Shown here piece after piece: positions 1-13,500 of a stretch of 52,981 nt of DNA (position 1 is the first letter of the stretch; the number at the start of each line of letters is the position of its first letter). Location of the stretch: the UHGV virus genome UHGV-1367038. One strand, given 5' to 3'. Source of the stretch: a virus. A program made the position numbers and the translations under genes. Under the pieces are notes generated by a model that saw nothing but the letters and a program-made list of their open reading frames with translations, made no database searches and was not told the DNA's origin.

Positions 1-2265
1 ACGCTTACTACCGATACGTCATATGAATTCTACTATGCAGGGGAAAATCAGATCACAGATCCGGCAAAAATAACCACGTCGGCACAGTTTACCGGGCGCG
101 GGTATCAGTGGACGTTCGGCGGCATGAATACGGGCCATACTTATTACGTTTATGTGCGCACTCGTAATGCTTTTGGTGTGTCTGATTTCGTCGAGGCATC
201 AGGTAAGCCAACAGAGGATTTTGACGAAATCACTGATTACGTTACAAAGGATGTAATGGAATCAGAGCAATTCAAGGAGATGATTAGCGACATTAAAGAT
301 CTTGGTGATCGCACTGATATTGTAGAAGGAGCTACCGAAGACCTTAAAATAGCTACAGAGGATCTTAAAGCTGACACAGATACACTTAAAAAAGACACCG
401 AAGACCTTTATAAAAAAGTCGAAGAAAACGCCGATGAAATAGGCAAACATGAGGTAAGAATAGACTCATTAGAGGTATCAAACGAAAACGTTAACAACGA
501 ACTGGCACAGGCAAAAGCAAGTTTACAAAACGCTTCGCTTGCTCTGATCAATAACTCGCTTGCTCAAACTAACACGCGGGTTACTCTTACCGCTCAATAT
601 AAGAAAGGTCGCAACGAAACAAAGGCACAGATTGACCGCATCGACAACGTTATCGCAGAGGAGAAAAAAGCGACAGCGGAATCACTGGAAACCATCACAG
701 CCGAAATAAATACGATAGACTCAAACATCAAAGGAGAAATAGCCCGCGTAGACAAAGCAATAGCAACCGAAACGCAGGCGAGAACGGAAGCTATAAGCAA
801 CGTTAACGCCAGTATCAGCAGCCTGGAAAACAAAACTGATGCGAGCGTTTCTCGTCTCGATCAAGCTATCGCTGACGAATCAAGCGCCCGCGCTCAGGCA
901 ATATCAGGAATCAGTGCGGAGCTTGGTCTTGTTGAAAATGAGGTTGATAAAAACAGCGACGAAATAGATCAGGCGAAAGCAAGCCTGCAAAATGCCTCAC
1001 TTGCACTTATTAATAACTCAATAGCGCAAAGCAAAATGAGCACTGTTATTGAGGCAAAATACAGGAAAGGCCAGACAAAAACAAAAGCGGAAATAGCAAG
1101 AATCGACACCGCAATAGCAGACGAAACCCAGGCCCGCGCGGAGGCTATAGCATCGCTTGAGGCAAATATTAATGAAAACATTTCAGCAAAAATAACGGAT
1201 GTCTCAACGGCACTCGCAACTCACGAGGCATCAAGCGCTGAAAAATTTGTCCAGATCTCGGCGTCTTTCGAAGATGTAAATTCAAGCATCACGGAATGGT
1301 CGCGGGCTATGGCAACGGCAGACGAGGCTTTATCAACCAAAATTGACCAGTTAAAAGTAACTATTGACGGGAACACAACAGCCATAGAGACGACATCGAA
1401 AGCGTTAACGGACTTTAAGGGGAATGTTGACGCATCATACTCTATTAAGATCGCGACAGACAGCAGGGGCGTAAAATACGCTACTGGTATGTCACTTGGC
1501 CTTACTGGTAGCGGAACTAACGTGCAATCGCAGTGTATTTTCCTCGTTGATCGCTTCGTGTTAATGACTGCGGCAAACGGTTCATATCAGACCCCGTTCT
1601 ATGTTACTAACGGCGCTTGCTACATTCGTGAAGCGTGGATCAAAGACGCATCCATCACTACCGCGAAGATCGCGCAGCAAATCCAGTCAACCAACTATAC
1701 ATCTGGTTCGGCTGGCTGGATGCTAAACAAAAACGGTAACGCGGAGTTCAATAACGTCACTGTTCGGGGTACGGTATACGCCACAAACGGTAAATTTACT
1801 GGTGAGATTCAGGCCACAAGCGGGACGTTTAAAGGGACTGTACAGGCTAACAAATTTGTCGGTGATATTGTGGCTATTCACACTTTCCCTGATTCCAGCA
1901 CTGTCTATAACTCAAGCCAGCGTGTAGCGCGTTTCTGTTATCGCTATGTGGACTCAACATCCGAAGGGACTTATAAAAACGTTATGTTCCAGGCAAGGTT
2001 ATCAGGGGCTACTGGCAACTCACAGATCAATACCTGGATAGCTGGTTCTCAGGTATTGGTTGGTAAGAAATACGGTAACGAAAACTCGAACGGCATGTTC
2101 TGTTTCGGTAGGGATGGTGTAACAAATCAGACGGTCGATGTTATTATCGAGATCTACACTCCGTGGTCAACAGGTAACATCACCGGGATTACGTTAAGTT
2201 GTCCGACTATGTTTATCGGTCGCAGTAACGGCACATGGTCGAAATGGGAAGAATCACACGACTAA
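1..2265 (+). CDS. J: Host specificity / central tail fiber protein J, C-terminal part (5' partial; continues from window end)
   Basis: Open frame from base 1; FN3-like segment (HTYYVYVRTRNAFGVSDFVEASG) resembles lambda J; long coiled-coil with internal duplication; C-terminal receptor-binding-like domain. Confidence 0.8.
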   Translation, partial: TLTTDTSYEFYYAGENQITDPAKITTSAQFTGRGYQWTFGGMNTGHTYYVYVRTRNAFGVSDFVEASGKPTEDFDEITDYVTKDVMESEQFKEMISDIKDLGDRTDIVEGATEDLKIATEDLKADTDTLKKDTEDLYKKVEENADEIGKHEVRIDSLEVSNENVNNELAQAKASLQNASLALINNSLAQTNTRVTLTAQYKKGRNETKAQIDRIDNVIAEEKKATAESLETITAEINTIDSNIKGEIARVDKAIATETQARTEAISNVNASISSLENKTDASVSRLDQAIADESSARAQAISGISAELGLVENEVDKNSDEIDQAKASLQNASLALINNSIAQSKMSTVIEAKYRKGQTKTKAEIARIDTAIADETQARAEAIASLEANINENISAKITDVSTALATHEASSAEKFVQISASFEDVNSSITEWSRAMATADEALSTKIDQLKVTIDGNTTAIETTSKALTDFKGNVDASYSIKIATDSRGVKYATGMSLGLTGSGTNVQSQCIFLVDRFVLMTAANGSYQTPFYVTNGACYIREAWIKDASITTAKIAQQIQSTNYTSGSAGWMLNKNGNAEFNNVTVRGTVYATNGKFTGEIQATSGTFKGTVQANKFVGDIVAIHTFPDSSTVYNSSQRVARFCYRYVDSTSEGTYKNVMFQARLSGATGNSQINTWIAGSQVLVGKKYGNENSNGMFCFGRDGVTNQTVDVIIEIYTPWSTGNITGITLSCPTMFIGRSNGTWSKWEESHD

Positions 2266-2373: not shown

Positions 2374-4149
2374 ATGATTTACACAACAGGCACGATAGCC
2401 GTTAGCGGAAAAACAGTTACCGGAACGGGGACTGAATTCAACGCCGCATTATCTCTGATCAGAGTGGGTTGCACTCTTATTGCCATTAGTAATCCGGTGC
2501 AGATTTTCTCAATCACAGAGGTAAAAAGCGCGACAAGTTTGTCAGTAACTCCGGCAGCAAGCCCGGCAATTCCGGCTGGAACTAAATTTAGCATCCTGCT
2601 TTCAGATTCGATCTCTGTGGATGGTCTTGCTCAGGATGTTGCAGAAACACTGCGTTACTATCAGGGCAAGGAATCAGAAATAGCTGACGCCGTTGAATTT
2701 TTTAGCGACAACAAAGATGTGATTTCAGCCTCAAAATTAGCATCAGAATCAGCTACCACTGCAACCAATGCGGCAACAACAGCGACAACCGCCGCCAATT
2801 CAGCAAAGACATACAGAGACGAGGCCCACGAATACGCCAATCAGACGGCGCAGCCTTACGCGTATGTTTTGCAGCCGCTGCCGGACGTATGGATACCGTT
2901 TAATGATTCACTTGATATGCTCACTGGCTACGGCCCTGGCACTAAAAAAGTAACCATTGATGGTGAAGAAAAAACAATATCATCAGATAAGGTTGTTTCT
3001 TTCTCACGCGCAAGCACTGCGACCTATATCAATAAATCCGGTGTACTCACCACTGCTGATATTGATGAGCCGCGTTTCGAACGCGATGGATTATTAATCG
3101 AAGGCACACGCACAAATTACCTTACCAATTCTAATACGCCGACGTCGTGGAATGCTAACACAGGCGTCTTAGAATTAACTGAATCAGGGACGGATAGTTA
3201 CGGCTTTAATTATGGAACATTTACATGCACAGCAGATGCGGCATCAACAGCGACGTTAATTTCGACAGGCACATCAAGAGTAATAGCTACCGCATCCGGC
3301 GAATCAGTTACTATTTCCGGGCGCTTTAAGGGTACTGGCGTCCGCGCACGGGCGCGTATCTCAAAACTTAATGAAGATGGATCAGGTAATACATTCATTG
3401 CTGACGCGCTTTTGGATCTTGATACAAAAGTTTTAACGTACGCCGCTAATTATCTATCTGCTTACTTCGTTGATGAAGGAAACGGATGGCTTTTCTTTTC
3501 CACCACGTATACAGCAACCGAAGATATTGACGTCTACGCACGCTTTGAATTATCACCAAAAACCGGGGAAACATTAGCAATAGGCGACAGTATCACCATG
3601 ACCACGCCGCAGTATGAGTCTGGTTCTTGCGCATCATCGTTTATTGTATCAGGTGACAATCCAACCACACGAGCAAGCGACCTGGTAAGCATACCGACTA
3701 AGAATAACTTATTTAAGCCACCATTCAGTTTTTTACTTGAATTACATAAGGAATGGACAACAGCGCCAAACGCAGCACCTAGAGTATTTGATATTGCAAA
3801 CGCAAGCACAGGACAATCTATTATAGCTGCCATTAACAGAGGTAGCAGTAAATTTTACGTTTCCTTGTCTAACAGTTCTGGTGATTACATCAATTCTGCC
3901 GCTGATTCCGTATTGCCAAGTAAAGCCATTGTTGGTGCGGTAGCTAAAGGTGATGATACTTTTCACGCGATCATGGATGGTGTGGCCGTTGCAGATGCAA
4001 CATGTTCTTACGGTGGAGTAACTCAAGGCAAAAACATCAGATTCGGCGGTCAGGTAGCAGACGGAGCGCGCCACTTGTTCGGACATATAAGAAATTTTCG
4101 TATCTGGCACAAAGCATTAACTGATTCTCAATTAAGCGAAATTGTTTAA
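2374..4149 (+). CDS. Side tail fiber protein with C-terminal lectin/LamG-like domain
   Basis: 591 aa; GGAG RBS; N-terminal MIYTTGTIAVSGKTVTGTGTEF typical of enterobacterial phage tail fibers; Ala/Thr-rich shaft; position after J. Confidence 0.6.
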   Translation: MIYTTGTIAVSGKTVTGTGTEFNAALSLIRVGCTLIAISNPVQIFSITEVKSATSLSVTPAASPAIPAGTKFSILLSDSISVDGLAQDVAETLRYYQGKESEIADAVEFFSDNKDVISASKLASESATTATNAATTATTAANSAKTYRDEAHEYANQTAQPYAYVLQPLPDVWIPFNDSLDMLTGYGPGTKKVTIDGEEKTISSDKVVSFSRASTATYINKSGVLTTADIDEPRFERDGLLIEGTRTNYLTNSNTPTSWNANTGVLELTESGTDSYGFNYGTFTCTADAASTATLISTGTSRVIATASGESVTISGRFKGTGVRARARISKLNEDGSGNTFIADALLDLDTKVLTYAANYLSAYFVDEGNGWLFFSTTYTATEDIDVYARFELSPKTGETLAIGDSITMTTPQYESGSCASSFIVSGDNPTTRASDLVSIPTKNNLFKPPFSFLLELHKEWTTAPNAAPRVFDIANASTGQSIIAAINRGSSKFYVSLSNSSGDYINSAADSVLPSKAIVGAVAKGDDTFHAIMDGVAVADATCSYGGVTQGKNIRFGGQVADGARHLFGHIRNFRIWHKALTDSQLSEIV

Positions 4150-4159
4150 GGTGGTTAGC

Positions 4160-4426
4160 ATGAAAGACGTTAGCTTGCAATTTACTGATAAACAGCAATA
4201 CAACGACATTGTGATTAACAGCGGCTGGCTGGACGAAAATCAGCAAACCGTGTTTATTGATGATATTGGTTTTGTTCTTGTATTCGATGATCCAGAAAGC
4301 GACACGCCTGTACTGATTGAGAAAAAAGGCTATTACGTCAACATGCGCATAACTGGTGACGATGTTGATTTGTCGCCGCTGGAAAAATTCATCATTCCAG
4401 ATCCCGGCGTCCGCGCATGGGCTTAA
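4160..4426 (+). CDS. Hypothetical protein downstream of tail fiber
   Basis: ATG with AAGGTGG RBS; 88 aa; the listed ORF start at 4142 is a TTG. Confidence 0.5.
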   Translation: MKDVSLQFTDKQQYNDIVINSGWLDENQQTVFIDDIGFVLVFDDPESDTPVLIEKKGYYVNMRITGDDVDLSPLEKFIIPDPGVRAWA

Positions 4427-4470
4427 TGGTGCGATAGTAACAGCATGGTGATGTTGAAGACATCGCCGCG

Positions 4471-4500
4471 AAACGAGGCTAACGCCTCGTTTCTTTTTGT
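4471..4500 (+). terminator. Rho-independent terminator
   Basis: AAACGAGGC-taac-GCCTCGTTT then CTTTTTGT. Confidence 0.7.
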
Positions 4501-4519
4501 GTACCAAATAGTGACCAAA
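4499..4519. repeat. Arm-type direct repeat copy 1 (GTGTACCAAATAGTGACCAAA), candidate integrase arm site in attP
   Basis: 19/21 identical to copy at 4740..4760; flanks int. Confidence 0.45.
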
Positions 4520-4702
4520 TATCAAAAATCAAAAGCAAAAATAACGTAATACACTGTTTTATAAATGATTATTCGTTGCGCTAACCATTCCAGACAGGAC
4601 CAGCGCACTATGTTTAAAGGTGTTTAACTCCGTTCAATCTCTCCACTAAAATTACTTAAAAATCATCCGGTTGTAACCAAAATCAAGCGTCACGTTTCTA
4701 AT

Positions 4703-4731
4703 TCCGTACAATACTGTTAATATCCGTACAA
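4703..4731. repeat. Two direct copies of TCCGTACAA spaced 20 bp, inside attP-like region
   Basis: Exact 9-bp repeats at 4703..4711 and 4723..4731. Confidence 0.35.
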
Positions 4732-4739
4732 CAAAAACT

Positions 4740-4760
4740 GTGTACCAAAACGTGACCAAA
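4740..4760. repeat. Arm-type direct repeat copy 2 (GTGTACCAAAACGTGACCAAA)
   Basis: Immediately upstream of int start. Confidence 0.45.
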
Positions 4761-4774
4761 AATGGGGGTGCAGC

Positions 4775-5989
4775 ATGCTTACGGATACCAGGTTAAGGAC
4801 TATTGCCAACAAGCCATATGACGGCCCAGGCGAGATAGCTGATCGTGATGGCCTGTCAGCCAGGATAAGCCCAAAAGGGAAAATTACCTTTCAGTACCGT
4901 TACAGATTCAACGGTAAGCCAGTGCGAATGAAGATCGGCGAGTACGGGAAAATGAGTCTGAAAGACGCCCGCTACGCGGTGGCTGAATACAGGGAGTTGC
5001 TTACGAAAGGGAAGAATCCGGCACTGTGCGTAAAGCAGGCCATAGCCTTTGAGCAGGGCAAGCGATCTATATCCGACGTAGTGGAAGACTACCTATCCCT
5101 GCCGAACGTCATTAAGCTGGTGGCGTATAAAGAAGTAAAAAGCGCATTGATGCGCCACGTGGTCAACAAGTACGGCGACTACATAGCTGACGACGTAACG
5201 ACAAAACAGTGGATGGATATATTTGGCGAGATCACGAAGGCGGGGCACGCCGTTACGGCGGGTTTGATATTAAAGCGAATGAAAATCATCGTTAACAGCG
5301 CAATCAGGCGCGGGATAATGACTAACACAGCGATAAACAATATCCGTGTCGCTGACGTTGGCGAGCATTATGCGGTGGGTGAACGTTATTTATCATGCGA
5401 GGAGATAGGTCACTTCTGGCGCACTGTAGACAGTTCGCAGATCTATCCGCAGAACAAAATAGCCTTAAAGCTATTATTGCTAACAGGGTGTAGGGTTGGT
5501 GAATTGCAGAAAATGAGAAGGGAACACCTCGACCTGGATAACGGTGTGTGGACCGTTCCGGCGGCGGTGGCGAAGACAAGAAGTGAAATCAGGCGGGGAT
5601 TATCTGACTTGTCGATAAAAATGCTCAGGGAGGTTTTAACCTCCCATGAGTATGATTATGTATTCCCGCCAGTGATTAACGGCGGCAACAGGCCAGTAAA
5701 CGTATCAGTGATAAAAGTAGCTGCAATATTCGTGCGTAAAAGGATGGGCGGTAAATCATGGTCCTGTCACGACCTCCGCAGGACGTGCCGGACACACCTT
5801 TCAGCTATAGGTGTTCCGGTACATATTGCAGAAAAGATCTTAGGCCATTCATTAAGGGGAATACTGGCGGTGTACGACAAATATGATTATCTTGATGAAC
5901 AAAAGGAGGCACTAAATAAGTTTGCTGATTATGTGTTATCTTTGGCTGACGTTAAACCAATCCGATCAAAGAACTGCATTACGTCCTGA
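4775..5989 (+). CDS. int: Tyrosine integrase (P4-like, N-terminal arm-binding domain)
   Basis: 404 aa; N-terminal DUF4102-like arm-binding pattern; C-terminal HDLRRT...HSLRG...Y catalytic motifs; GGGGG RBS. Confidence 0.9.
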   Translation: MLTDTRLRTIANKPYDGPGEIADRDGLSARISPKGKITFQYRYRFNGKPVRMKIGEYGKMSLKDARYAVAEYRELLTKGKNPALCVKQAIAFEQGKRSISDVVEDYLSLPNVIKLVAYKEVKSALMRHVVNKYGDYIADDVTTKQWMDIFGEITKAGHAVTAGLILKRMKIIVNSAIRRGIMTNTAINNIRVADVGEHYAVGERYLSCEEIGHFWRTVDSSQIYPQNKIALKLLLLTGCRVGELQKMRREHLDLDNGVWTVPAAVAKTRSEIRRGLSDLSIKMLREVLTSHEYDYVFPPVINGGNRPVNVSVIKVAAIFVRKRMGGKSWSCHDLRRTCRTHLSAIGVPVHIAEKILGHSLRGILAVYDKYDYLDEQKEALNKFADYVLSLADVKPIRSKNCITS

Positions 5990-6159
5990 TAGCGGTACAT
6001 AACGCCACGCCCGGTCCCAAGTACGTCAACCGGGTCGGGGAACGGAGTTCCGTTCCGTTCCCATTTTTTACGCCATAAGTAAAACGTTCCCCTGCTAATT
6101 CCCCCAAGCATCCGGCAGATGGCAGGGCGACTAAGAAGGATTGTCCCGGTTTTATCCAT
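5929..6159 (-). CDS. AlpA-family HTH regulator / putative excisionase
   Basis: 76 aa; AlpA-like HTH (LLSRPAICRMLGGISRGTFYLWRKK); 3' end overlaps int 3' end by 61 nt. Confidence 0.65.
   Translation of the reverse strand: MDKTGTILLSRPAICRMLGGISRGTFYLWRKKWERNGTPFPDPVDVLGTGRGVMYRYQDVMQFFDRIGLTSAKDNT
6038..6070 (+). terminator. Terminator-like hairpin downstream of int, embedded in the AlpA-like coding region
   Basis: GGAACGG-agtt-CCGTTCC followed by ATTTTTTA. Confidence 0.4.
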
Positions 6160-6806
6160 TATTTATCCCCCGTGTATTCAACGTGTCCGATACATCCGTC
6201 TATAATAGCTTGCGCCATGTTGCGATAATCACGCGAATAATCATTATCACGATTGAAATTTATTTCTCCTGCTGCGTCTTCACCAATAACCTTAGTAGCC
6301 AGTGCAAACGCAATTTGCGCCAGTGCTTTTTCTTTCGGATCTATCCAGCGGCGATACCTAAAACGGTTCCATCTTGCTGTTTCTTCACATTTTCCAGTCC
6401 TTCTAACAAATATCCCTATTTCATCGCCAGTAAAAATATATTTGGCTACGCAGTATACAGGCGCAAAGTCACCTGGGTAAAATTCGAGCCATACATCTAA
6501 CGGCGGTCTTTCCCCTGGCTGCCATTCCTCGACTTTTGGTTTATCACAATCATGGCGCTCATCTTCGATTAACTCGTCAATGATTTCACTTTCTTTATTC
6601 ATGCCATCATCATCAATGTTTTTATATTCTTCAAAAACCCATGAAGCCGCCATTACTGAATAAGTGCCGCCAGTATCAGCGCGAACGCCCAAAAGGAAAG
6701 ATGATCCATATTGGTATTCGCTGCGGTATGTAGCAACCTCAAAAGAAGGGTAAAAGTCCGGATCTACACGATGTCGAATTATGCCAATTGCTTTAAGTTT
6801 ATTCAT
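6159..6806 (-). CDS. Hypothetical protein
   Basis: 215 aa ORF; GAGGGT RBS; stop overlaps the AlpA-like start. Confidence 0.6.
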   Translation of the reverse strand: MNKLKAIGIIRHRVDPDFYPSFEVATYRSEYQYGSSFLLGVRADTGGTYSVMAASWVFEEYKNIDDDGMNKESEIIDELIEDERHDCDKPKVEEWQPGERPPLDVWLEFYPGDFAPVYCVAKYIFTGDEIGIFVRRTGKCEETARWNRFRYRRWIDPKEKALAQIAFALATKVIGEDAAGEINFNRDNDYSRDYRNMAQAIIDGCIGHVEYTGDK

Positions 6807-12821: not shown

Positions 12822-13469
12822 ATGAAAACAAAATGGTATGACTTAGCAAAGCAGCTCATGCGAGCGCAAGGCATGAGCCAGGATTCACTCGCGGATCTCA
12901 TGGGGATAACTAAAGGCGGCCTGTCACACTGGCTTAACGGTCGCCGCGAGCCAAATCTTGAAGATATTGCGCGGATTATGCGGGCACTTGGTCGTCGGCA
13001 GTTCACTGTTACCCATGATGGAATGGTCATTGATGATTCTGTTTCTAACACGTTACCGGGAGCGCCGCAGCGTGATTTAGGCAGTTACCCGGTTGTTGAC
13101 TGGAAGGACACAGTAAACAATATGGAAGATACAAGGCGATCAACATTACCACACGTTACGACTAGCGTTATTTGTTCAGATGATAGTTACTGGCTGGTTG
13201 CTAAAGGTGAATCAATGAACGCGCCGCAGGGGTTGAGCATCCCTGCCGGGACGATGATACTTGTTGACCCACACGCGCCAGCTATCGATGGAAAGCTGGT
13301 TATAGCACAGCTTGAGGAAGGGCAAATACCGACGTTTAAACAGTTGATTATTGATGGAGGTCAAAGGCTTTTACGTTCGCTTAACCCGCTGTATCCACCA
13401 ATCCCCATGAATCCTGAATCGAAAATCATAGGCGTGGTGGTGGACGCGAAGATCGTAAACCTGCCATAA
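12822..13469 (+). CDS. cI: CI-like repressor (HTH plus S24 LexA-like peptidase domain)
   Basis: 215 aa; N-terminal XRE HTH; C-terminal AKGESM serine motif; ATG 8 nt after a TATAGG -10-like hexamer (possibly leaderless). Confidence 0.85.
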   Translation: MKTKWYDLAKQLMRAQGMSQDSLADLMGITKGGLSHWLNGRREPNLEDIARIMRALGRRQFTVTHDGMVIDDSVSNTLPGAPQRDLGSYPVVDWKDTVNNMEDTRRSTLPHVTTSVICSDDSYWLVAKGESMNAPQGLSIPAGTMILVDPHAPAIDGKLVIAQLEEGQIPTFKQLIIDGGQRLLRSLNPLYPPIPMNPESKIIGVVVDAKIVNLP

Positions 13470-13475
13470 AAAATT

Positions 13476-13500
13476 AGCCGCCGAATGGCGGCTTTTCTTT
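13476..13500 (+). terminator. Rho-independent terminator after cI
   Basis: AGCCGCC-gaat-GGCGGCT then TTTCTTT. Confidence 0.7.

Follow-up and report, generated by a model that had tools for sequence, protein, structure and literature searches.

A P4-type integrase gene overlaps a convergent, probable excisionase gene in the recombination cassette of an mEp021-like phage

The virus genome UHGV-1367038 (52,981 nucleotides; hereafter the window) carries a P4-type tyrosine integrase gene, int, on its plus strand, and the 3' end of this gene runs into the 3' end of a small minus-strand gene. For reasons given below, we regard the small gene as a probable excisionase (RDF) gene. The following features were located in this region by the ORF table and the methods named for each:

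4591..4610, no strand: att core, or attL junction, approximate, CCAGACAGGACCAGCGCAC; placed by comparing the window to the E. coli M15 prophage junction and to the start of the mEp021 record
4624..4652, plus strand: candidate int promoter, TTAACT-17-TAAAAT; consensus scan
4739..4763, plus strand: tandem motif TGTGTACCAAAACGTGACCAAAAAT, directly upstream of the int start; repeat family D1
4775..5989, plus strand: int, P4-type tyrosine integrase gene, 404 aa; ORF table, Pfam and PHROG
5929..6159, minus strand: probable RDF gene, encoding a 76-aa winged-helix DNA-binding protein homologous to mEp021 gp02
5929..5989, both strands: tail-to-tail dual-coding overlap of 61 nt; ORF table and homologous overlaps
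6038..6069, plus strand: terminator-like hairpin (stem-loop 6038..6062) and A-T6 tract (ATTTTTT, 6063..6069); consensus scan and RNAfold
6159..6806, minus strand: upstream gene of unknown function, 215 aa, whose TAA stop overlaps the RDF ATG (TAATG)
6166..6171, minus strand: Shine-Dalgarno-like GGGGGA, 6 nt upstream of the RDF ATG; found by inspection of the sequence

The coordinates in the ORF table bear out the original prediction that int and the small gene share 61 nt tail-to-tail. Within the shared stretch, the plus strand encodes Int residues 385-404 and the int stop codon, and the minus strand encodes RDF residues 57-76 and the RDF stop codon. RefSeq/PGAP and the GenBank record of mEp021 annotate the same overlap, and the equivalent annotated overlaps measure 61 nt in mEp021 and 43 nt in mEp013, mEp044 and mEp010. 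That an ORF extends antisense into its neighbour for 19 codons by chance is not improbable (approximately 0.4, from (61/64)^19). An ORF-calling artefact can be rejected, because the overlapped part holds helix 3 of the RDF (residues 57-66), which is conserved and confidently modelled. Both int and the small ORF are real genes. Int has the arm-binding (DUF4102) and catalytic domains of a P4-type enzyme (Pfam Arm-DNA-bind_3, 1.1e-19, and Phage_integrase, 1.1e-20), falls into PHROG 1 (integrase) and is 33% identical to the integrase of phage Phi24B (E 2e-71) over residues 2-388, where the alignment ends. All 7 sequenced mEp phages carry the small ORF in intact form, and its product is conserved across the Enterobacterales at 35-60% identity; several GenBank records, those of mEp515, mEp554 and Salmonella phage Oslo, leave the ORF unannotated or place a gene in the wrong frame.

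The whole region matches phage mEp021 at 83% identity and shares its gene order; it is probably the cassette that serves an mEp021-like (mEpimmI) temperate coliphage in site-specific recombination. In E. coli M15, the prophage sits at dgcM/ydaM, the site published for type I integrases of this phage group (PMC11893012). Phage and host-flank sequences diverge just left of the att core, which lies approximately 185 nt upstream of int, with repeats and the promoter-like site in between. Both hexamers of the candidate promoter are kept in the M15 prophage, while its spacer varies. Given its position on the int side of the att core, this putative promoter would remain with int in the prophage. The tandem motif TGTGTACCAAAACGTGACCAAAAAT upstream of int is conserved in 6 of 6 mEp phages, covering both integrase types, and recurs at 4498..4522 on the opposite side of the att core; the copies may be arm-type or regulatory sites. 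The mEp554 record annotates a minus-strand terminator, "T1", at the 5' end of int.

On the other side of the cassette, the RDF gene is the last of an unbroken leftward block, in which minus-strand ORFs are contiguous from approximately 12561 down to 5929. A nutL-like boxA/boxB was recognised by eye at 12657-12623, and a nutL site at the start of the leftward block together with N-like antitermination has been published for the mEp021-like phage group. The TAATG stop/start overlap suggests that translation of the RDF is coupled to that of the 215-aa gene, and the mEp021 record annotates GGGGG at the site equivalent to the Shine-Dalgarno-like sequence at 6166..6171. In an alignment of both integrase types, the 3' end of the 215-aa gene and the first RDF codons are conserved, whereas the body of the RDF and int differ. 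The 3' end of the 215-aa gene marks the boundary of an exchangeable int-RDF cassette.

Several lines of evidence bear on the function of the small protein. The AlphaFold2 (AF2) model (pLDDT 82) has the order beta-alpha-alpha-beta-beta-alpha of a MerR-like winged-helix fold. Fold and profile comparisons match best to excisionases, with Foldseek matches that are individually non-significant (E > 0.2). A profile built from 43 family sequences aligns with the Xis of Phi24B in hhalign over 53 columns at 32% identity (probability 82.9%, E 9.2e-6), a weak but specific match. In 66 loci, the gene adjoins the 3' end of int, and among the mEp phages a switch of integrase type is accompanied by a switch in the sequence type of the RDF, the flanking gene being conserved throughout. 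From the predicted fold, the Phi24B Xis profile match and the co-variation with the integrase type, the minus-strand gene very probably encodes the phage excisionase, in keeping with the Xis-like role first proposed for it. The accompanying label "AlpA-like" holds for the fold only and finds no counterpart in Pfam: the window protein has no match to Phage_AlpA (PF05930) at E<=10 and matches only HTH_23, HTH_28 and HTH_29. Among the relatives, 2 of 43 touch PF05930 (best E 0.1) and 6 of 43 match HTH_17 (best E 0.003). In PHROGs, the protein is assigned solely to phrog_4745, "DNA binding protein". A PDB sequence search returned a single match, to glutamate decarboxylase, which we consider spurious.

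We next consider the overlap across the family, for which overlap length and terminator presence were compared by lineage. The homologous int-RDF pair overlaps in 66 of 66 int-linked loci from the Enterobacterales, making the overlap a conserved property of the cassette. Its length is not conserved and ranges from 8 to 61 nt (8, 25, 28, 31, 34, 37, 43, 46, 55 and 61 nt). By contrast, the spacing between anchors in the conserved cores of the two genes is fixed and free of indels, at 65-71 nt in all lineages except type II (53 nt). Differences in overlap length are mainly due to the position of the int stop, as illustrated by a natural SNP in L038 and L040 that changes RDF R66 to Q and Int R397 to a stop, leaving Int 8 aa shorter and the overlap at 37 nt. 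The conserved part of Int ends at approximately residue 388 (window position 5938); residues 389-404 form a lineage-specific tail, encoded antisense to RDF helix 3. Counted from the conserved ..EQ motif, the Int tail of the present lineage has 28 residues, the longest seen. Across the family, the tails measure 16-28 aa for Int and 7-15 aa for the RDF. The core spacing leaves no room for the two C-terminal tails together with their stop codons, so that each ORF continues antisense to the other until it meets a stop.

We favour the following account of the locus. Int would be read rightward, presumably from a promoter of its own within the 185 nt that separate the att core from the start codon, and would converge on the gene for a 76-aa winged-helix protein that is most likely its cognate excisionase. 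The RDF gene would be the last of a leftward early block that starts from nutL under N-like antitermination, and is apparently translationally coupled to the gene before it. With int served by its own promoter and the RDF at the end of the early-left block, expression of the two would be uncoupled: the RDF would be produced only once the early-left operon is derepressed, and Int independently of this. The Int tail is overprinted on RDF helix 3, and the hairpin with its T-run would largely be a by-product of conserved RDF codons. Taken as a whole, this explanation, a cassette of known type with the 61-nt overlap as a by-product of tight packing and no special control device shown, is probably the correct one. 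None of the 66 loci represents a lineage freed of the overlap, and its retention in every lineage could reflect selection for coupling rather than inertia.

The terminator-like hairpin deserves separate attention. As originally predicted, a terminator-like site for int does lie within the coding sequence of the small gene; it begins 49 nt past the int stop. The stem-loop, GGGAACGGAGTTCCGTTCCGTTCCC, has 11 pairs with G-T allowed, of which 6 are G-C, and a free energy of -17.7 kcal/mol (RNAfold). On the minus strand, the hairpin bases encode RDF residues K31-K32-W-E-R-N-G-T-P-F-P41, and they derive mostly from the codons of the conserved WxxxGTPFP and KKW residues. That the hairpin and T-run are a genuine intrinsic terminator of int, selected as such within the RDF coding sequence (a dual-use sequence) and keeping int transcripts from running antisense into the early-left operon, is a possibility to be taken seriously, even if it is less likely than not. 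Its shape is canonical, with a perfect, G+C-rich stem of 9 bp (GGGAACGGA/TCCGTTCCC) followed by A-U6, and type Ib and type II relatives have some hairpin before a T-run at the same place. Moreover, the stability of the window hairpin exceeds that of 98-99% of synonymous recodings of the RDF protein, placing it in the top 1-2%; this post hoc observation hints modestly at selection, which would not be expected if the hairpin were a by-product and nothing more. Against selection, the hairpin has a z of only -1.46 relative to dinucleotide shuffles, and that of mEp021 (-12 kcal/mol) a z of approximately 0. The protein sequence alone yields a terminator-like site in 32-42% of synonymous recodings, as the GTPFP codons (GGA-ACN-CCG-TTC-CC) are intrinsically palindromic and the KKW codons supply the T-run. 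There is also no enrichment in the family as a whole, where a terminator-like site on the int strand is present in 4 of 15 lineages, compared to 2.8 +/- 1.4 expected from the protein sequences alone. Among distinct sequences, 24 of 54 have such a site, at varying positions, and the hairpins of relatives are weaker than that of the window or different from it. The ARNold predictions deposited with mEp554 likewise give no terminator at this site. Between mEp013 and mEp044/010, a C-G pair is replaced by A-T, a double change that could be read as support for a selected structure. It is, however, the sole clear double change and belongs to a hairpin in another register, and with family-wide enrichment lacking, we reject a conserved structured element. 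A search of the 53-kb window against Rfam gave no match at the gathering threshold. The hairpin may well stop int transcripts in the present lineage, without being a conserved component of the cassette.

Could the overlap itself be regulatory? Past the RDF stop, a consensus scan of the minus strand gives no intrinsic-terminator-like site for approximately 770 nt, i.e., none before 5156. Leftward transcripts would consequently enter int in antisense, making convergent transcription of int and the RDF gene plausible. Expression of Int and of the RDF might then be mutually antagonistic in cis, via an RNA duplex (RNase III), polymerase collision or both. The int mRNA would extend from its own promoter to approximately 6069 and be complementary over approximately 140 nt to the RDF mRNA in its 3' two-thirds; leftward transcripts, antiterminated upon induction, would cross the RDF gene and then int in antisense, and the decision to integrate or excise would become sharper. 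Down-regulation of a gene by a convergent transcript overlapping its 3' end has its classic example in lambda OOP RNA, which acts on the 3' end of cII. Besides this well-established precedent, the universal convergence of overlapping 3' ends in the 66 loci, the leftward block from a nutL site in a phage group with N-like antitermination, the lack of a minus-strand terminator-like site for approximately 770 nt past the RDF stop and the stability rank of the window hairpin all fit such control. We nevertheless consider it unlikely. Overlap length and terminator presence vary freely among lineages, and the fixed core spacing accounts for the overlap without any regulatory role. Since excision requires Int and the RDF together, strong mutual interference at induction would be counter-productive. 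In addition, literature searches gave no described case of int/xis antisense control. The earlier suggestion that overlap or hairpin is a dedicated directionality device thus receives no comparative support. A bolder version, to which we give slightly less credence still, holds that the overlap is kept because the 3' end of the int mRNA, set here by the terminator in the RDF coding sequence, is a built-in antisense RNA against the RDF message, while antiterminated early-left transcripts silence int; this would be an RNA-level switch on top of the protein-level Int/Xis switch. If true, antisense control would place a further, RNA-based layer on the integration/excision decision, but the comparative evidence is not in its favour.

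Least likely, in our view, is that the small protein is chiefly a transcription regulator, either an AlpA-like int activator or antiterminator or a repressor of the int promoter like P4 Vis or TorI: databases call it only a "helix-turn-helix transcriptional regulator", its Pfam matches are generic HTH families, known AlpA/Vis/TorI proteins regulate int as well as acting in excision (PMC2951348), and a related HTH lineage (L048-L051) is not adjacent to any integrase, so that the family is not strictly tied to int, but fold and profile match excisionases best, a cognate RDF would be expected at this syntenic position and to vary together with the integrase type, and the two roles are not mutually exclusive.

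The favoured reading, a packed int-RDF cassette with separately expressed genes, has a close precedent in Phi24B, for which Xis function and CI-independent int expression have been shown experimentally (Fogg et al. 2011, PMC3064807). In Phi24B (vB_EcoP_24B, HM208303), a P4-type int (236..1405, plus strand) lies at the left end of the prophage and is read rightward from its own promoter, and the last gene of the leftward early operon, for a small winged-helix Xis (1389..1571, minus strand), converges on int and overlaps the 3' end of int. The two systems differ in the length of the overlap (17 nt compared to 61 nt in the window) and of the excisionase: Phi24B Xis has 60 aa, and the 76-aa RDF of the window has a WERNGT turn insertion, the codons of which form the hairpin. 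The backbone also differs, being Sepvirinae for Phi24B and mEpimmI, non-lambdoid, here, as does the integration site (dgcM/ydaM here). Finally, excisionase activity is proven for Phi24B Xis and predicted for the window RDF. The uncoupling proposed for the window likewise follows the KplE1 paradigm, in which the int promoter lies in attL, RDF transcription is uncoupled from it and RDF expression is the switch for excision (Panis et al. 2010, PMC2951348). As in KplE1/HK620/Sf6 (IntS/TorI), a promoter-like site is found in the window between the att core and int, and int and the RDF gene would be uncoupled. With the AlpA-family/MerR-like excisionases of GIsul2 (PDB 8c3t) and RdfS (8dgl), the window protein shares the predicted winged-helix fold, without the PF05930 match.

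Lambda offers a more distant comparison. Its directionality comes from differential expression of Int and Xis, controlled by the repressor through an N-antiterminated leftward operon, and differential expression of Int and the RDF would set directionality in the window cassette as well. The arrangement of the genes is different, as lambda xis and int run in one direction from the shared pL and overlap head-to-tail, whereas those of the window converge. No equivalent of lambda sib was identified in the window cassette.

The cassette is thus a known type of integration/excision module with normal tight packing, for which Phi24B is the precedent. The practical value of the analysis lies in annotation: the mEpimmI phage group gains a likely excisionase, a protein never mentioned when the group was described in 2025 (PMC11893012). 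More broadly, a P4-type int with a convergent, overlapping RDF gene makes up a compact cassette that is swapped as a unit between unrelated Enterobacterales phages.

The original prediction placed the 3' end of the integrase gene (int) in convergent overlap with a small AlpA/Xis-like gene, with a terminator-like hairpin inside the latter. The ORF table and a consensus scan show that the 61-nt overlap and the position of the hairpin are accurate to the base:

4775..5989, plus strand: int, 404 aa (ORF table)
5929..6159, minus strand: small excisionase-like (RDF) ORF, 76 aa (ORF table)
5929..5989: tail-to-tail overlap of int and the small ORF, 61 nt
6038..6062, plus strand: stem-loop (GGGAACGGAGTTCCGTTCCGTTCCC) followed by ATTTTTT, terminator-like site (consensus scan)

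The terminator-like site begins 49 nt beyond the int stop and, in the window, lies entirely within the small gene.

The small gene is real. A GGGGGA Shine-Dalgarno sequence precedes its ATG by 6 nt, and this ATG shares bases with the stop codon of the 215-aa gene before it (TAATG). Homologues with 35-60% identity occur across Enterobacterales, and despite annotation gaps all seven phages carry the gene as an undamaged ORF. It is unannotated in mEp515 (L004 1340..1570), mEp554 (L002 1340..1570) and Salmonella phage Oslo (L008 ~2477..2722), and for the last two the annotation has a short ORF in a different frame instead; gene callers probably dropped the gene because of its overlap with int. Two homologues are damaged: P0016, a 59-aa variant that shifts to an alternative frame after residue ~19, and L047 3001..3135, a 44-aa truncation after GTPFP.

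The product is probably an excisionase, and the Xis-like assignment is upheld. The family profile matches the Xis of the Stx2 phage Phi24B (probability 83%, E 9e-6), and among the mEp phages the sequence type of the small gene changes in step with integrase type (I versus II), as would be expected if a cognate RDF and its integrase were swapped as a single cassette. Both the gene upstream, at its 3' end, and the small gene, in its first codons, are conserved whichever integrase type is present. In Pfam the protein matches only the generic HTH_23 (2.5e-6), and relaxing the cut-off to E<=10 brings up no Phage_AlpA match. Of 43 relatives, 2 reach AlpA, at E ~0.1, and 6 reach HTH_17. The AlphaFold model (43 homologues, pLDDT 82) has a beta-alpha-alpha-beta-beta-alpha arrangement with residues 67-76 disordered.

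The region shares ~83% identity and its gene order with coliphage mEp021 and with mEp515 and mEp554, which are related to it; mEp021-like phages make up the 'mEpimmI' group of Nus-dependent non-lambdoid temperate phages (PMC11893012). Int has Arm-DNA-bind_3 and Phage_integrase domains (Pfam), which make it P4-type. An identical segment, present in only 22 of 5,426 complete E. coli genomes, is a prophage beside dgcM (ydaM) in E. coli M15, which agrees with the integration site published for type I mEpimmI integrases (PMC11893012). Comparison of the M15 prophage junction with the window puts the att core at about 4591-4610, with ~185 nt separating it from the int ATG downstream. In M15 (L109 530..1896) the insertion point lies at the 5' end of dgcM, a gene annotated as 393 aa.

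An already characterised module, that of Phi24B, has this layout. The Phi24B integrase is 'inverted' relative to lambda and has its own promoter, while a novel Xis, active by experiment, adjoins the int 3' end under pL control (PMC3064807). In the Phi24B GenBank record, int (236..1405, plus strand, 'P4 integrase conserved domain') and xis (1389..1571, minus strand) overlap convergently by 17 nt, compared with 61 nt in the window; the two integrases are 33% identical over residues 2-388 of the window Int. The layout also fits the published KplE1 paradigm, in which attL holds the int promoter and transcription of int and RDF is uncoupled (PMC2951348). A promoter-like site and repeats lie between the att core and int, as in KplE1, where the int promoter and the arm sites are interspersed:

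4624..4652: promoter-like TTAACT-17-TAAAAT between att core and int, hexamers conserved in the M15 prophage

TCCGT(A/T)CAA occurs three times in the same interval (4629..4637, 4703..4711 and 4723..4731), one copy overlapping the promoter-like spacer. A tandem motif, TGTGTACCAAA..GTGACCAAAA (TGTGTACCAAA-NN-GTGACCAAA(A)), abuts the int start at 4739..4763 and is conserved there in all six mEp phages, with both integrase types; a second copy lies across the att core at 4498..4522. The motif is a candidate arm-type Int site or translation/transcription control site. Between the last tail-region ORF (4142..4426) and this P-arm copy, close to the latter, is a strong terminator-like hairpin (GAAACGAGGC/GCCTCGTTTC with a T-run, 4470..4493, plus strand), which in the circular phage genome would shield int from late-operon transcripts reading through. 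The GenBank record of mEp554 carries an ARNold-predicted rho-independent terminator, 'T1', within the first int codons (L002 209..250, minus strand; window ~4798..4839); a simple scan of the window found no equivalent.

To place the overlap in its family, we combined 98 loci from one GTDB genome scan and one IMG/VR scan with phages Pm34, Oslo and MagusPhagus and the window, yielding 66 loci where a P4-type int and the small gene converge. The ORFs overlap in 66 of 66, by 8, 25, 28, 31, 34, 37, 43, 46, 55 or 61 nt. Exceptions to the int-linked arrangement are the L048-L051 lineage, one MAG (L013) and the damaged L047 and L089. In L048-L051 (IMG/VR), a related HTH gene of this family (~51% identity) is followed by no integrase within 3 kb and lies ~1.4 kb from a canonical AlpA-like 73-aa gene (e.g., L048 2992..3216 and 4632..4853); the context may be a satellite or island.

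The overlap probably has a geometric cause. Two conserved anchors, the F codon in helix 3 of the RDF and the Q codon in the Int '..EQ' motif, lie 65-71 nt apart in all lineages but mEp type II, where the distance is 53 nt. Into this space must fit an RDF tail of 7-15 aa, an Int tail of 16-28 aa and two stop codons, which together exceed it, making overlap unavoidable; its length depends mainly on the int stop position. The window's class has the longest Int tail and therefore the largest overlap. Int residues 389-404 fall outside the stretch alignable to Phi24B Int, and their codons lie opposite those of RDF helix 3: the bases for I-T-S-stop at the Int C-terminus, for instance, read Q-D-V-M of the RDF on the complementary strand. 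In two IMG/VR loci (L038 and L040), one SNP, at ~5963 in the window, creates both RDF R66Q and a stop at Int codon 397, so that Int loses 8 aa and the overlap shrinks from 61 to 37 nt. Because the R66Q allele recurs in five more prophage contigs (L034-L037 and L039), which end before int, the Int tail appears dispensable, judging from these sequences.

The hairpin is mostly a by-product of protein sequence and not a conserved element. On the RDF strand its stem reads TGG-GAA-CGG-AAC-GGA-ACT-CCG-TTC-CCC (W-E-R-N-G-T-P-F-P), AAA-AAA-TGG (K-K-W) gives the T-run on the complementary strand, and the invariant GTPFP codons (GGA-ACN-CCG-TTC-CC) already include the GGAAC/GTTCC palindrome. We made 3,000 synonymous recodings of RDF residues 2-56 with each of two codon models, and a terminator-like site persisted in 32% of them with window codon usage and in 42% with uniform usage. 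Across the family it occurs at varying positions in 24 of 54 distinct cassette sequences and in 4 of 15 lineages (groups below ~85% similarity), versus 2.8 +/- 1.4 expected from recoding. By RNAfold, the window hairpin has -17.7 kcal/mol, with z only -1.46 against dinucleotide shuffles; those of mEp021 and mEp554 have -12 kcal/mol (z ~0), and type II phages fold in a different register (-14.4 to -15.6 kcal/mol). Only 1.2-2.1% of recodings fold as stably as the native sequence, and the hairpin of the window lineage is strong enough that a role as int terminator is plausible, if somewhat doubtful.

Convergent transcription is plausible from the layout, as originally proposed. Minus-strand ORFs, with DnaB and NinB among their products, run without sizeable gaps from ~12561 to 5929, and to their right are:

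12822..13469, plus strand: CI-like repressor (HTH_3 and Peptidase_S24)
~12657-12623, minus strand: boxA-like GCTCTTTA then a short hairpin, just left of the repressor gene (read by eye)

The boxA-like element and hairpin fit what has been published for this phage group, a nutL site upstream of the repressor gene and an N-like antitermination system based on Gp17 (PMC11893012). A bidirectional terminator-like hairpin (13476..13493) follows the repressor gene. The consensus scan found no minus-strand terminator-like site from the RDF stop until 5156, so leftward transcripts should run antisense into int. In M15, dgcM and the leftward operon share a strand, so any transcript reading leftward through int and attL would reach dgcM in sense orientation. 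It is unlikely that int/xis antisense interference controls directionality: excision requires both proteins, we found no such mechanism described in the literature, and nothing comparative singles out either overlap or hairpin as a regulatory device.

The gains are thus minor: an RDF of the mEpimmI phages is identified, as a prediction, and the int/RDF overlap is found to be universal in this cassette family, with a geometric explanation offered for it.
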